From Trichomonas gallinae (lineage: Eukaryota): a stretch of DNA of 47,891 nt. The translations under genes were made by a program, and so were the position numbers. The notes below the pieces were generated by a model. It saw only the letters and a list, made by a program, of their open reading frames with translations. It searched no databases and was not told the origin of the DNA. The stretch is from assembly GCA_008369845.1 (NCBI GenBank), contig MRSU01009471.1, forward strand, positions 1 to 47,891, read 5' to 3'. Position 1 is the first letter of the stretch. Each line of letters starts with the position of its first letter. This document shows positions 4,660-25,723 of the stretch, piece by piece.

Positions 4660-5228
4660 TTAAAAAAATAAAAAACGAAAATTTGCAAAAAAACGAAACA
4701 AAACTTTTCGTTTTTTGATTAAATTTAGAATTATTATATCATATTATCCGCTTAATTTTCATTTTAACAACAATTTTCATTTTTTAAAAACATGGAATAG
4801 GAAATAATAGATGTTATAGCAAAATATATGTATATATATATGGGATTTGTATTGATATCCTTTATCAAAATTCCGAAGTATTATAAATCAGTCAATATCT
4901 TACATAAACATTAAGTAATTAATAAATTTACCAGTGTAATGCAAATAAAAGCTAAATTATGTTCAAATTATCGATTTGAAATGATGTTAAATAATTTCAA
5001 AAATCATAATTTTCTAAATCTTATATGAAAAAATGATATTTTTTCATTGTCATTCTTTGAGTTAAGAAAAAAATTAAATATTATGTATTCTTATTAGAGC
5101 ATGGAGATATTAACAAATTCGCGCAAATTTTATTGATCATTCTATTAATCAATATTAAAATTTTATTGTTGATGGGGAAAAAGATTAAATTATATAACGA
5201 AACTTTAAAACAAAACAAAATATAATAA

Positions 5229-11722: not shown

Positions 11723-11727
11723 TCATT
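11723..11727 (+). promoter_or_regulatory. Initiator-like TCATT
   Basis: Matches the trichomonad Inr consensus TCA(T/C)(T/A) and ends 6 nt before ATG 11734. Confidence 0.5.
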
Positions 11728-11733
11728 CTTTTG

Positions 11734-12642
11734 ATGGAAAATCAGTGTGAACATATCCAAGACGTCGACGTTCTTGAAATATTCAAGCCGTACCACGAGG
11801 TTTCATCATACTTATGGAACTTATCTAAAGAAAATGTTAATACAGAAGAATTAATCAAACTAATTATTGACAAAATCGAGACTCGCTTTGTATCACCAAC
11901 ATTCATATACAATTTAATCTTTGTTATTACTATGTACAGACCGCATTTGTCTCAAATCATGAATGTTATTTGCAAATCATTGTGCACGAAGTATAAAAGA
12001 GTATATCGTGAAGTTAGTTTCCCATTTCTCACAAAAATAACATGTTTCAGGCCAACAGAATTAAATAATATACTTTTAAATGATGATGTTGATGAATACA
12101 TTCAATATCTTACACGCAAATTCGCAAATCCAGATATTTTGGACTTACAAGCATCCTGCCTATATGGATCAATTAATTGCTTTAAATATATCATCATGAA
12201 TCTTGATAAAGATTTAGAAACTGCGAAATATTATGCGATAATATCAGGAAACCTCGAGATGATTCGCATTTTATATAACAGTGGAGTCTCTTTCGATAAG
12301 TGTTATAGAATGGCTGTCGTTACAAATCGAAATGAAATTGCTGATTGGATTTATGATAACTTTGGAGACAATGAGAGTAATGTATTTGAAGCACTTGTCG
12401 TAAAGAACTATCAAGCCGTAAGTTTTTATATGAATAACGGTGTAAATCCAGAAGATTTAGCTTTTAATCCAATAATGGTTGCAAGCCAAGAGAACAGCCC
12501 AGAAATCATCGAGTACTTCATGACAAAAGGTTTTGCAATTGAAGAAAGCCAAATTAATTTTAATATTTTGGTATTCTTTGTTATCAAACAATATTCAGCA
12601 TTTTTCAATGACATTCATCCTATATTCAAGGAATTCATTTAG
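11734..12642 (+). CDS. N-terminal part of a DUF3447-type ankyrin-repeat protein; coding signal ends near 12552 and the rest reads into a spacer
   Basis: ASCLYGSINCFKYI, AIISGNLEMIRIL, AVVTNRNEIADWI motifs, then NPIMVASQENSPEIIEYFMTKG; after EESQ the sequence becomes low-complexity I/F/N. Confidence 0.8.
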   Translation: MENQCEHIQDVDVLEIFKPYHEVSSYLWNLSKENVNTEELIKLIIDKIETRFVSPTFIYNLIFVITMYRPHLSQIMNVICKSLCTKYKRVYREVSFPFLTKITCFRPTELNNILLNDDVDEYIQYLTRKFANPDILDLQASCLYGSINCFKYIIMNLDKDLETAKYYAIISGNLEMIRILYNSGVSFDKCYRMAVVTNRNEIADWIYDNFGDNESNVFEALVVKNYQAVSFYMNNGVNPEDLAFNPIMVASQENSPEIIEYFMTKGFAIEESQINFNILVFFVIKQYSAFFNDIHPIFKEFI

Positions 12643-12734
12643 TTTTTCATGATATTCACTTGTTATTTTATGAATTTCATCAATCTCATATACAGCTGCG
12701 AAAATTAATCATATAATTTTAGTATTCGTTATAT

Positions 12735-12827
12735 ATTTGTATGACACCTCTAATTATTGCATGCAGACACGGAAGCTTAGAAGCTGTTAAATTCTTGATT
12801 TCTTCTGGCGTCAACATCAATACTGGC
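12735..12827 (+). CDS. Isolated ankyrin repeat module 2 of the split gene
   Basis: CMTPLIIACRHGSLEAVKFLISSGVNINTG is an intact consensus ankyrin repeat, in a different frame from module 1. Confidence 0.8.
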
Positions 12828-12924
12828 ATCGTTTTTCACTTTCTTATAGAGCTCATTCTCGTGCAAAGTTTGATGAAGTTGCGAAAATTGTTCATTTTTG
12901 TTTTTATTCAGTTTATTTTCAATT

Positions 12925-13026
12925 CAGACAACTCCATTAATCACTTCGATATTCTCACATAATACAGATATCGCTAAGGCTCTTATTGAAAATGGAGCTA
13001 ATGTCGAAGCAAAAGCACTTCTTGAA
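12925..13026 (+). CDS. Isolated ankyrin repeat module 3 of the split gene
   Basis: QTTPLITSIFSHNTDIAKALIENGANVEAKALLE. Confidence 0.8.
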
Positions 13027-13184
13027 ATTCAATTTGTTTTTAATGATATTATTCATTATATGATGAAGGACAAGATAGCTTGTATATTTATCATAGATAT
13101 ATATGCTAATTCATTTATAATTCATTGCATTCATCATTATTTTTATTCAATTCAACAATAAATTTATGAAATTCATTATTGTTT

Positions 13185-13274
13185 CAAGCAACTGCTCTCA
13201 CTGCTGCGATAATAACCAAAAATCTCGATTTAATTAAGTTTTTGCTTGATCACGGTGCAGATAAAGAAAATGGA
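13185..13274 (+). CDS. Isolated ankyrin repeat module 4 of the split gene (not in the ORF track)
   Basis: Manual translation QATALTAAIITKNLDLIKFLLDHGADKENG; in-frame TGA just upstream at 13167. Confidence 0.8.
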
Positions 13275-13460
13275 GTAATTCATTATTATTCTCATTATAT
13301 TCATCTTTAAATTACAAAATTCATTGTTGTATCATCAAACAATTCATTACATAATCATCTCATTCATCAATTTGCTATGATATTCATTTTTCATTTTCGG
13401 AATTCAACAATTTTCTTAAATGATTCATTATTTTGCCTATCACATTCATCATTTTAAAAT

Positions 13461-13535
13461 AAAGAGCTTCCTTATGATATCGCAATGCGTAACTACTTCA
13501 AAGAGGCTATCGATTTACTTGCACCAAAGGATTGA
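13461..13535 (+). CDS. Terminal capping ankyrin module 5 of the split gene (not in the ORF track)
   Basis: Manual translation KELPYDIAMRNYFKEAIDLLAPKD followed by TGA (13533-13535); PYDIA...AIDLL is a typical C-cap repeat. Confidence 0.75.
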   Translation, partial: KELPYDIAMRNYFKEAIDLLAPKD

Positions 13536-17462: not shown

Positions 17463-17594
17463 GTATGTATTATTAAATTTTTGTTAAAGTTGTTAGCTTT
17501 GAAGAGCACAATCCAGCTCATCTGAATCATGATGAAGGAACGTCCGAGCTCAACACTTTAACAAAAAAAAAATTATTAAATTACTAACACACAG
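17463..17594 (+). other. Spliceosomal intron (132 nt) in an apparently non-coding transcript
   Basis: 5' GTATGT at 17463 and exact fused branch point/3' splice motif ACTAACACACAG at 17583-17594. Confidence 0.8.
17495..17550 (+). ncRNA. Intronic box C/D snoRNA candidate
   Basis: C-like TTGAAGA 17499-17505, D' CTGA 17522-17525, C' ATGATGA 17529-17535, D-like CCGA 17544-17547; closed by AGC/GCT and a long flanking stem TTTTTGTTAAAG/CTTTAACAAAAA. Confidence 0.75.
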
Positions 17595-17936: not shown

Positions 17937-20552
17937 TTAGTTCTTTGCTCCGTTGTCTTTCAAAACTTCCTTGTATTTCTTCTTATCCCAAAAGCCAATA
18001 TACTTAGAGTCCTTGATGACGGCCATTGGTGTTTTTCCGTCGTGATTCTTCTCTTCTAGATTTATTCCATTAACTTTAACTAAATATTGAACAATCTCCA
18101 TGCGGCCGAGGTTACAAGCTGCATGCAAAACAGTGTCACCTGTGTTCGTCTTCAAGTTTATGTCGTATTTAGAGAGACCACATAAATATTTCATGATAGG
18201 CAGAGAATTGTTCATCACCGCCCAATAACCTGCCGACCATTTATTGTTGTTCGTCGCTAAAACGTTACAGCCGTTCTCAGCGAGCGCACGCATGAGTGGA
18301 AGATCTCCTTTATAAGCTGCGTTGAGGAATGATGTATTTCCGACATCATCTTTAGCTTCAGTTAATTTCTTTTCAACAGCAAACTTTATTGCATCATTGT
18401 CGTTTTCTTTTTGGCATTTCTTGAGGACGTGGTAGATCTGGTCGAAGTCATTCATTGTTGGGCGAAGCTTCTTCAACTTCTCTGTGTTCTCAGATGGTTT
18501 CTGTTGCTCTTGTGGTTGATTTTGTTGAGTTTGATTATTATTTGTAGGTTGTTGAGGTTTTTCTTCTTTAGGCGGTGATGGAGGTTTGAGGAAACTGATA
18601 TCGTAGCGAGGGGTACCGATAGCTTTGAGCTGACTCGTGAGACTATTTTCCTTTTTCGGAGCAAGTTTTGGAAGATTGGATAATGCTTGTGGTTTCTCTT
18701 GTACTTGTTTCTGCAAGCTTGAAGTGGATTGTTTGAGCTTTGGAAGTGAGTTTTGAGTGTTTAATTTTGATGGTTGAACTTCAACCTTCATTTCATTAGG
18801 ATTAATGAAATTCTTTGGATTTTGAGACTGTACAGCTGATGCATTGCCACTCAATGTCCACTGAACTGGTTTGTAGGCTTCATGCATTTCTTCGATCTCG
18901 AGTTCATCGATGATTTTGATTGGATTTGCTGGAACCGGAGGTGGAAGAAGTGGTTTATTCTTCTCAGGAAGCGGTGGAGGCATCAGCCACTGATTTTTTG
19001 ATGGATCTTCTCTGGGGTCAATGTGCTTGTTAGGGTCATAAGCTTGGGCTTCATACATGCGAGGTATATCGTTTTCAGATTGATCTATAAGCCTCTTATA
19101 TTCTGGATATTGATTTTCAGATTTTGGAGTTTTTTCGACTTCTCCGTTTGGATCTACTTGTTTGACTTTATCTTGTGTAATTTGAGCCTCTGGTTGTTGA
19201 TTTTCAGATTTTTGTAATTCGTTATTGATTTGTTGAGGGCTAATAAGCTTTTCATTAGATTGTGTATGTATTTCTGATTGGTTTTGATTAATATTTTCTG
19301 CTTGTTTCTGTTTAATATTATTTTTGTCCGATTTTTCTTCTGATTTTTGCATATTTTCGATTGCATTATCGTTCTTTTGTTCATCTTCTTCGACGATTTT
19401 TTCTGTTTTTGTTTGATTTTCTGATATTATTTTTTCAATTGCTTGTTTTTCAACTTTTTCGGCGGCAGGAGGCCAATCTTTTGCCATTTGTATGTGTGCA
19501 TTAAAATTTACTTTCTTAATGGTCTCCTCCTTCTTTTGCTCTGCATTTTCATTTGTATTGGCCGCCGAGAGAGCTGAATCGTTATTCTTCGGCGGCAATG
19601 AGGCTTTTTTTGGAGAGCTGTTGTTATTTTGCGTGTCTTCTTGCTGATTTTCGTCTTTCCGTCTGCTCGATAAAACAATCGGTTTTGTGTCTGTTTTCTT
19701 CGTGTTCTCTAGTTTAGGCATGTAACTTTCCTGGTTCCCTTGTTGCTGTGCATTCTCTTGTTGTTTCTGTTTGGCTGATGCTAGCTTCGTTTTTTTAGCT
19801 TTTAACGCTGCGATTTTCTTTTTCTTTTCTTCGTCGTCTTTATCTGTTTCTTTTTCTGCTGGTGGTTCTTCTTCAACAGGAAGGTCAAGCTTTACTCTAT
19901 ATTCGTTTAATTCTTCTTTTTGCTTTTTAATTGTTGCATCACGTTTTTTAAGCATGCTTTTGAGTGTTGCAATATCCTTTGTCTTCTTTTGTACTTGAGG
20001 AAATAGATCGTCAATTTTATCCCTGAGCTCGTCTGTTTCTTTTTCTTTTGCATTCAAAAGTTCTTTGAGTTGGTTGATTTCTTCATCTTTTTGATTCACA
20101 GCATTCATAATTCCAGAATGTTCACCCTGCTGCTGTGTTAATTCGCTTTTATTTTGAGAAATCGAAGTATGTAATATAGTAATTTGGTCTTTTAACCTCT
20201 GAATTTCTACGTCTTTCGCATGGTTTACTGATAATAATTCGTGATATGATTGATAAACTGATTTAAGTACGGGAGATTTTAAAGATTTGAAAATTATTGA
20301 TAAAAGTTCTGCCACTTTTGTGAAATCATTACTTGTGACTACTTTGAGGTGCTGAATTATTTTGAAAATTTCGACTGATTTGAATTTTGCTTTGCATTCT
20401 GTCAAAAATCCAATTGCTTGATTGATTTGTAGATCAGTTAGATCCAAAATTTTGCAGACATCAGGTAGCGAGAAAACATCTATGAACGTGTGATTCTGCA
20501 GATACACGCTGATGTTCTCGGCGACCGATTTATGATCGACCGATGTCTGCAT
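17937..20552 (-). CDS. Coiled-coil/low-complexity protein with C-terminal ankyrin repeats
   Basis: GNTSFLNAAYKG, KWSAGYWAVMNN, GDTVLHAACNLG, GKTPM repeats; Q/E/K/P-rich middle; first ATG (MQTS) at 20552. Confidence 0.85.
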   Translation of the reverse strand: MQTSVDHKSVAENISVYLQNHTFIDVFSLPDVCKILDLTDLQINQAIGFLTECKAKFKSVEIFKIIQHLKVVTSNDFTKVAELLSIIFKSLKSPVLKSVYQSYHELLSVNHAKDVEIQRLKDQITILHTSISQNKSELTQQQGEHSGIMNAVNQKDEEINQLKELLNAKEKETDELRDKIDDLFPQVQKKTKDIATLKSMLKKRDATIKKQKEELNEYRVKLDLPVEEEPPAEKETDKDDEEKKKKIAALKAKKTKLASAKQKQQENAQQQGNQESYMPKLENTKKTDTKPIVLSSRRKDENQQEDTQNNNSSPKKASLPPKNNDSALSAANTNENAEQKKEETIKKVNFNAHIQMAKDWPPAAEKVEKQAIEKIISENQTKTEKIVEEDEQKNDNAIENMQKSEEKSDKNNIKQKQAENINQNQSEIHTQSNEKLISPQQINNELQKSENQQPEAQITQDKVKQVDPNGEVEKTPKSENQYPEYKRLIDQSENDIPRMYEAQAYDPNKHIDPREDPSKNQWLMPPPLPEKNKPLLPPPVPANPIKIIDELEIEEMHEAYKPVQWTLSGNASAVQSQNPKNFINPNEMKVEVQPSKLNTQNSLPKLKQSTSSLQKQVQEKPQALSNLPKLAPKKENSLTSQLKAIGTPRYDISFLKPPSPPKEEKPQQPTNNNQTQQNQPQEQQKPSENTEKLKKLRPTMNDFDQIYHVLKKCQKENDNDAIKFAVEKKLTEAKDDVGNTSFLNAAYKGDLPLMRALAENGCNVLATNNNKWSAGYWAVMNNSLPIMKYLCGLSKYDINLKTNTGDTVLHAACNLGRMEIVQYLVKVNGINLEEKNHDGKTPMAVIKDSKYIGFWDKKKYKEVLKDNGAKN

Positions 20553-24959: not shown

Positions 24960-25723
24960 TTGAAGATCCAAAAAAATGCGTTTGGCGAAATCTATAATAT
25001 TTTCAATCTCATTGAAGCAGCTTCAATGATTTTGATGCTATGAACTTTGCTGTTAAAACGAATAGAATGTAAAAAATATTTGATTTTTCAATTGGACAAT
25101 GCAATTTCCAGCTCGTCACATATTAGAATTCGATGGAAACAATTTTTATAAAAGTAAATTCTATAATGATTATGATTGTGAGTTAATGAGAGCTATCCTC
25201 AAAGTTCGACGTTTTGCTGTTAATGACGTTTTGTTAGATGCATTATTTATTGATCAGCATGAAGTTGTGAAACTTCTTCTTACCTGGAATAAATTTCAAC
25301 GCAAAAGATGACTGGGATAATATAGCTTAGATTCTTTCTTCAGCATTTGGCCGTCAAGAAGTTGTCCAACTCCTTCTCACAATTCCTGGAATAGATGTCA
25401 ATGCAAGAGATCATTGGCATAATACAGCTTTGATTTGTGCTTCATTTAATAATCATCCAGAAATTGTCAATCATCTTCTCAAAATTCCTGAAAAAGATGT
25501 TAATGCAAAAGATAAATGTAATAATACAGCTTTGATTTATGCTTCAAAACTTGGTTATCATGAAATTGTCAAACTCCTTCTCATGGGTTCTGGAATATAC
25601 GTCAATACAAAAAACGATGAAAAGAAAACAGGTTTAATTAGTGCTTTAGAAAATGATCATCATGAAGTTGCCAAACAACTTCTCTCATATCCAGGAATAT
25701 ACGCATATGATAATCTTGATTAA
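24960..25723 (+). pseudogene. Ankyrin-repeat pseudogene related to the 17937-20552 family
   Basis: Fragments NAFGEIYNIF / NDFDAMNFAVK echo NDFDQIYHVL...NDAIKFAV; frameshift near 25283 and in-frame TAG at 25328-25330 inside otherwise regular PGIDVNA(K/R)D repeats. Confidence 0.75.

Follow-up and report, generated by a model that had tools for sequence, protein, structure and literature searches.

Fixed-length units in the ankyrin loops of parabasalid genes: candidates for serial skipping during expression

Short non-coding blocks lying within conserved reading frames, at many sites, are known from T4 gene 60 and from Magnusiomyces mitochondria, and the bypassing of T4 gene 60 depends on the nascent peptide (PMC7026636, PMC5009743). 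Introns offer further points of comparison with the units described here: those of Trichomonas belong to the same organisms, are likewise AT-rich, and measure 23-28 nt (type B) or 56-196 nt (type A), while those of Stentor (15 nt) and of the Bigelowiella nucleomorph (18 nt) also have a tiny, near-invariant length that suggests a ruler (PMC12316389). In T. vaginalis, 923 frameshift-split genes were noted in 2007, and long poly(A) reads show adjacent ORFs carried on one mRNA, with ankyrin genes among the commonest (bioRxiv 10.64898/2026.08.31.748405). Here, we describe ankyrin genes in which the hairpin loop is interrupted by units of about 17 nt. The phenomenon is real, recurs across two parabasalid lineages and lies outside every family tested, and the sequences make it very probable that expression involves removal or skipping of the units, by one route or another.

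The window, meaning the whole stretch analysed, is the 47,891-nt Trichomonas gallinae contig MRSU01009471.1, and the gene occupies positions 11734-13535 on its + strand. Three-frame translation recovers modules 1-5 in order and thus bears out the five-module DUF3447-ankyrin order read in the first-pass annotation. Just 5' of the ATG lies an Inr-like TCATTCT (11723..11729, +), whose sequence we take to approximate the Trichomonas Inr consensus. Module 1 (11734..12552, +; 273 codons) comprises a DUF3447-like N-terminal part and degenerate ankyrin repeats, and is 38-39% identical to T. vaginalis TVAG_139130. Each of the next three modules is a single intact ankyrin repeat: module 2 (12741..12833, +) with TPLI at 12744, module 3 (12925..13026, +) with TPLI at 12931 and six loop codons, and module 4 (13188..13277, +) with TALT at 13191. 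Module 5 (13461..13535, +) is a capping repeat, LPYD...APKD (13467-13535), with its TGA. Modules 1-4 match Pfam ankyrin families (module 5 is too short for the scan), with an Ank_2 match over its cutoff; the match of module 1 to DUF3447 (E 0.0008, 19.8 bits) falls short of the gathering score of 26.9, and the closest named relative of module 1 carries the DUF3447 annotation. Among the downstream modules, only module 2 contains an ATG. The DNA comes from a Trichomonas other than T. vaginalis G3: a Rab encoded in the window falls into a 90% identity cluster with T. vaginalis RabA3, while TVAG_139130 matches module 1 at just 39% identity.

The intact modules had been contrasted with a decayed ankyrin pseudogene at 24960-25723 (+), and this contrast is confirmed, since there a 1-nt shift and a stop lie inside repeats and the 7-codon loops are intact, as in ordinary decay. 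On the - strand, 17937-20552 encodes a protein of 871 aa in which the loops of the C-terminal ankyrin repeats are free of interruptions, so that the units are absent from some ankyrin genes of this genome. An Rfam scan gave no match inside the window ankyrin gene, none of 3 candidates was a homolog of the module-3 ORF, and relatives of the N-terminal alignment were found in 0 of 65 genome-contig and 0 of 144 viral-contig stretches.

The TVAG_139130 and TVAG_445390 ORFs both end in the ankyrin loop that is interrupted here. Compared with module 1, two close relatives show 7-8 changes over the 273 residues that precede spacer 1, as against 4 changes over the 29 residues of the read-through tail (p 0.014-0.02). 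Among the best 150 of 3992 family representatives, several end in G/E/V-I/V-H/Q-Y/F shortly past GxxxN, the residues encoded by NNN ATT CAY; a filter for spacer-like tails was passed by a modest 12 of 113 relatives, 5 of them with the motif, the other examples having been picked by eye. In one pair from a 90% cluster, one member reads through a unit in frame (six codons of loop and six of unit, followed by two more and TPL) and the other stops, probably through one extra T.

The four spacers were originally placed at the ankyrin hairpin loop and described as shifting the frame or holding stops, and both points hold: three are frameshifting, and spacer 4 keeps the frame and contains two stops. 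From the GxxxN/E motif to the next T/L, the gaps are 200, 109, 182 and 198 nt for spacers 1-4, with refined skip starts at 12553, ~12834, 13027 and 13278 and refined ends at 12734-12740, 12924, 13187 and 13460. The implication that each spacer is a single block has to be given up, as spacers 1, 3 and 4 are chains of ~20-nt units. Spacer 1 (12553..12740, +; 3' end uncertain within 12734-12740) parses into ~9 skip units, with starts at 12553, 12573, 12593, 12613, 12633, 12654 and 12675, and spacer 3 (13027..13187, +) into ~8, with ATTCA at 13027, 13109, 13129, 13150 and 13171. Spacer 4 (13278..13460, +) holds nine ATTCA-started units (13278, 13299, 13319, 13342, 13362, 13382, 13402, 13423 and 13444) spaced by 21, 20, 23, 20, 20, 20, 21 and 21 nt, the final one being exactly 17 nt long, T-ended and two codons 5' of the capping repeat. 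Across the whole 47.9 kb, chains of at least three ATTCA at 20-, 21- or 23-nt spacing occur only in these three spacers, and spacer autocorrelation at lag 20 has a z of 4.2.

The parse model allowed 16-19-nt skips with 1-2 codons between them; it imposed whole codons, and its motif had been seen beforehand. Under it, spacers 1, 3 and 4 score higher than all of 400 dinucleotide shuffles and all of 1000 NTTCAN-keeping shuffles, whereas the parse of spacer 2 (12834..12924, +; ~90 nt, with TTTCAC at its start and ATTCAG at 12906) is not significant, 253 of 1000 motif-preserving and 76 of 400 dinucleotide shuffles scoring as high. The 30 parsed skips measure 17 nt (16), 18 nt (11) or 19 nt (3), and 19 of them start with ATTCA. 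Motif and length weights were set after inspection of the data, so the non-circular evidence consists of the test of phasing and of the G content of the triplets lying between skips. The predicted single codons are indeed G-rich (18 of 84 nt, against 23 of 347; null parses give 9%), which could belong to the signal and not to coding. The three clearly motif-marked first skips begin on a codon boundary. The gaps in the window are not exact multiples of 17; the 21-nt spacing could be 18+3 or 17+4, and Trichomonas may either keep the single codons or drop entire 20-21-nt units. The folding z-scores of spacers 1-4 were -2.55, -0.07, -1.53 and -0.11, with no common structure among the four folded spacers, and the end pairing of spacer 3 (z -1.5) was taken as chance.

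Other loci with this architecture, which the first-pass annotation had suggested looking for, do exist: they belong to another parabasalid, and their unit is held sharply at 17 nt. An alignment of module 1 led to 23 metagenome loci (L001-L023) out of 200 candidate stretches. Their S7 scores 219 bits against PDB 5xyi (next entry 120) and their L11 335 bits against PDB 5xy3 (next entry 207), entries that we take to be T. vaginalis ribosome structures; the source is another, unplaced parabasalid, a distant relative of the window's Trichomonas. The contigs are long and gene-dense, and the 3' motif of type A introns is absent from 170 kb of them. A profile scan found 152 loops shorter than 99 nt, or 145 unique loops without 7 duplicates, of which 41 measure 21 nt, 91 measure 38 nt, three 55 nt, one 52 nt and nine other in-frame lengths; no other frameshifting length and no 39-nt loop occurs among the 145. 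Loop length thus follows the rule 21 + 17 per unit. The 91 38-nt loops are spread over 20 loci and group into 66 sequence clusters, with a mean identity of 38%. Two loci are repeated in a second assembly (L007/L008 and L014/L015), so the interrupted loops are not an assembly artefact. Intact and interrupted loops are mixed within single genes, L017 having 11 interrupted loops among 15 repeats and a capping repeat at its end.

The genes beside these arrays are unbroken: stop-free stretches of at least 130 aa cover 84% of 133,666 non-array bases, and 18 of 20 chosen neighbouring ORFs have a Pfam match, many across whole domains. Among the genes examined, the units are confined to ankyrin loops. 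A DNA pattern combining ankyrin with two ATTCA units matched 2 viral and 22 prokaryotic loci, of which only the two viral ones have ankyrin repeats, with ordinary loops; these viral genes (L024 and L025) are near-identical, L025 being 4 nt shorter with one repeat match lost. Elsewhere, the paralogs P0017, P0023 and P0024 are mosaics with halves in common, consistent with gene conversion or chimeric assembly. In L002 (6491-7110), a 17-nt unit was copied along with six tandem 116-nt repeats, and its sequence has drifted while its length has not. L006 (~560-600) and L007 (~1205-1245) lie in near-identical genes that part where a loop is interrupted and carry different repeats from there on, which suggests repeat shuffling with breakpoints at the unit.

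What exactly is skipped can be read from the stops in the 38-nt loops. In the upstream frame, no stop falls on loop position 10 (6.5 expected) or 13 (4.9 expected), and in the downstream frame there is 1 at position 33 (10.1 expected) and none at 36 (12.3 expected); between 15 and 33, stop avoidance is not consistent. Coding-type constraint therefore extends up to both edges (positions 1-15 and 33-38) around a neutral middle, so that the skipped piece is most likely positions 16-32, 17 nt with 49% T. GG at positions 33-34 occurs 9 times (1.9 expected). Excising 16-32 leaves one stop across 91 loops, in the L013 loop near 4962, which holds GTAAGT and may use another register. Starting the skip one base later, after position 16, leaves 5 stops. 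Register 19-35 leaves none and is disfavoured by the residue at -2, which is polar or Gly in 18 of 91 loops for this register, in 47 of 91 for 16-32 and in 37 of 41 intact loops. The edges carry weak signals, T at +2 and a pyrimidine as last base, with an ATTCA start in Trichomonas: T occupies position 17 (an NT start) in 67 of 91 interrupted and 3 of 41 intact loops, and a pyrimidine precedes the last two codons in 88 of 91 and 14 of 41, respectively. Seven double loops were examined (4 from the scan, 3 added by eye); read as skip-codon-skip, they have NT at the first start in 6 of 7 and the pyrimidine end in all 7, whereas back-to-back skips have NT in only 2 of 7. One codon between skips gives the 20-nt period. 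Unexplained is an excess of L/F two residues before TPL after a skip (37 of 91, against 3 of 41 intact loops).

Are the repeats beyond these units functional? When the scan tolerates stops, 177 of the 178 modules that score highly contain none, the lone exception being a terminal stop. Paralogous pairs, picked by similarity, give a dN/dS of 0.40 where they lie downstream of skips (48 pairs) and of 0.29 where they lie upstream (10 pairs). Neutral evolution of the downstream modules, an outcome considered from the start, is thus not what the ratio of ~0.4 shows, and these repeats are under purifying selection. The same figures bear on another view, in which the locus would be a pseudogene in decay or several independent mini-genes started from TCAT initiator-like motifs. 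The ATTCAT of the units presumably does resemble the Trichomonas initiator. Many pseudogenes are also expressed in Trichomonas (PMC4223856), but 17 nt is too short for a terminator plus a promoter, ATG is limited to module 2, and with the quantised length also against it we regard this view as largely refuted and very unlikely.

It could instead be supposed that the downstream repeats are silent cassettes for recombination or DNA-level excision, only the first module being expressed in place. The split of L006 from L007/L008 at an insert, and the duplication of L002 units together with their repeats, speak for such a history, but the intact loops differ from what excision would leave (L/F at -2, p 7e-5), the arrays finish in ordered capping repeats with stops, and donors would gain nothing from an exact 17-nt length and edge signals. 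We consider this improbable. The early suggestion of a possibly undescribed processing system gains from the recurrence, the fixed 17-nt unit and the purifying selection, and loses its option of DNA-level excision, which is disfavoured.

Equally improbable, in our estimate, is that the units are translated with one -1 frameshift each (17 = 18-1; 20 = 21-1), producing longer hydrophobic loops. A stop-free path of this kind exists in 90 of 91 single loops, and diphthamide genes are absent from parabasalids (PMC6143161); yet one blocked loop is no significant shortfall from the ~2 expected under conservative shuffles (P 0.31-0.37), looser shuffles giving P 0.047 and 0.005. No fixed shift site works, since 8 loops have an upstream stop at position 19 and 9 loops a downstream stop at position 21. 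Loops of 39 nt are missing, and lengths of 35, 41 or 44 nt occur in 0 of 91, against 9 length variants among 50 in-frame loops. In the window, the downstream frame of spacer 3 opens only after the upstream frame has closed, and two in-frame stops lie in spacer 4.

Splicing in its ordinary form fares worst. The GT..AG pairs pointed out earlier in spacers 1, 2 and 4 (12571-12722, 12831-12927 and 13275-13466) exist as claimed, and spacer 3 indeed offers no frame-restoring GT/GC..AG within 30 nt of the loop that gives a loop of at most 16 codons. As junctions the pairs do not hold up: the GT at 12571 is not kept in two close relatives, where the codon is K or I, and GT..AG occurs in 0 of 91 units of the other parabasalid. 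GTATGT and ACTAACACACAG are, as reported, absent from the spacers, the only ACTAACACACAG in the window being at 17583, with GTATGT at 17463. Ordinary GT-AG spliceosomal introns are hence the least probable explanation, and a most doubtful one. The type A-like intron that these two motifs delimit (17463-17594) lies outside any long ORF and contains a weak C/D-box snoRNA sR14 match (17495-17549; Rfam, E 0.018, below gathering); a snoRNA may thus be encoded here within an intron of a non-coding or UTR host.

In light of this, how might the units be passed over? We propose, with a probability of roughly 0.45, that the ribosome steps over each 17-18-nt U-rich unit on uncut mRNA, probably reading a single codon between consecutive units, and so joins the separate repeats into one full-length protein. 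The trigger would be a freshly made ankyrin repeat in the exit tunnel together with an NTT(CA) context in the A site, and the mRNA would loop out while the P-site tRNA stays paired, because no landing codon matches. A failed skip would enter the unit and produce a short F/I/L/Y-rich tail, as the annotated ORFs end. In its full form, as a fixed ~17-nt skip without codon match, triggered by nascent ankyrin, used dozens of times per mRNA and separated by single codons, the proposal is somewhat more tentative. The argument is that the edge signals are too weak for an AT-rich genome, that neighbouring genes are unbroken and that interrupted loops differ little from intact ones at the synonymous sites of their flanks, which favours a peptide context; the encoded ankyrin repeat is the likely source of that context, and this points towards the ribosome. 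The long poly(A) reads across adjacent T. vaginalis ORFs, the 923 frameshift-split genes and the absence of diphthamide genes from parabasalids also count in its favour. The first skipped codon is I/V/L/F in 64 of 91 loops and never a stop. A take-off codon with a matching landing codon occurs in 1 of 91 (3.2 expected), with no excess at lags of 14, 17, 20 and 23, and take-off stem-loops were not found (mean pair probability at most 0.18; mean MFE z -0.07 against insert shuffles), so that a hop of this kind would be without precedent. Against it, ~30 serial skips in the window gene and 11 in the L017 gene demand very high efficiency, which RNA excision, done once, meets more easily. The phase 0 of single units may be inherited by repeat duplication.

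The other serious candidate, quite possible though we would not bet on it, is that the units are tiny motif-poor introns, cut serially from RNA by a ruler and leaving 3-nt micro-exons; the ruler might be a ribosome-positioned nuclease with a ligase, or a variant spliceosome. Every sequence-level result fits, uniform length and U-richness are typical of such introns, and one-time removal suits 11-30 events per gene. Default STAR settings score gaps <21 nt as deletions. As motif-less junctions were also discarded in the published pipeline, with 99.7% removed (PMC12316389), and filtered out in bioRxiv 10.64898/2026.08.31.748405, introns of this size could have gone unnoticed. On the other side, no unit has GT..AG at any 17-nt offset (0 of 91), a frame-restoring GT..AG is possible in only 23 of 91 loops, CTAA is depleted (1 against 6.1 expected in 91 units), there is no conserved structure, and the 5' and fused branch/3' motifs of trichomonads are unusually strict (PMC12316389). 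Weaker evidence comes from proteins: no processed form appeared in homolog and cluster look-ups, and among 241 candidates of 166-529 aa neither the window protein nor TVAG_139130 had a longer, continuous counterpart.

Should the ribosomal skip be correct, nuclear genes would be read in a new way, and a programmed hop of fixed length would mean that a large class of apparently broken ankyrin genes is functional, with repeat number set at translation. By either route, parabasalid ankyrin genes would be mis-annotated as truncated, and part of the 923 frameshift-split T. vaginalis genes, a puzzle since 2007, would have a testable account. The ankyrin hairpin forms part of the binding surface, and the units put a variable element there. 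T. vaginalis is genetically tractable, and long-read transcriptomes exist.

We found no prior description of such units in the full-text literature, among the matches listed, most subscription papers lying outside it. The available parts of PMC13735942, PMC4223856, PMC12289875 and PMC6679479 do not mention ankyrins, and those of bioRxiv 10.64898/2026.08.31.748405 do not describe the unit structure. Whether the skip is ribosomal or an RNA cut-and-join, a motif-poor ruler of fixed length in one protein-repeat loop matches no tested family. Transposon- or IES-like ends would show a direct-repeat excess, which the 91 units, in their 66 clusters, lack. The non-spliceosomal introns of IRE1/XBP1-HAC1 and of tRNA and the nonconventional introns of euglenids are short, non GT-AG and structure-defined, whereas here no conserved hairpin and no covarying or paired ends were found. 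Stentor and Bigelowiella nucleomorph introns have GT-AG ends and are genome-wide, and the units are neither. In contrast to type A and B introns, the units are below the 23-nt minimum, have no GT..AG or 3'-fused CTAA branch (ACTAACACACAG or TCTAA..AG) and occur many per gene, when the entire T. vaginalis genome has 63 introns (PMC12316389). Stop readthrough of the kind considered for split genes could not restore the frame over three of the four window spacers. Compared, finally, with T4 gene 60 and Magnusiomyces, where blocks also interrupt conserved frames, the units have no landing codon that matches the take-off codon, no A-site stop and no stem-loop; they lie in nuclear genes, have a fixed length of 17-18 nt, form serial chains with single codons between and, among the genes examined, keep to the loops of ankyrin repeats.
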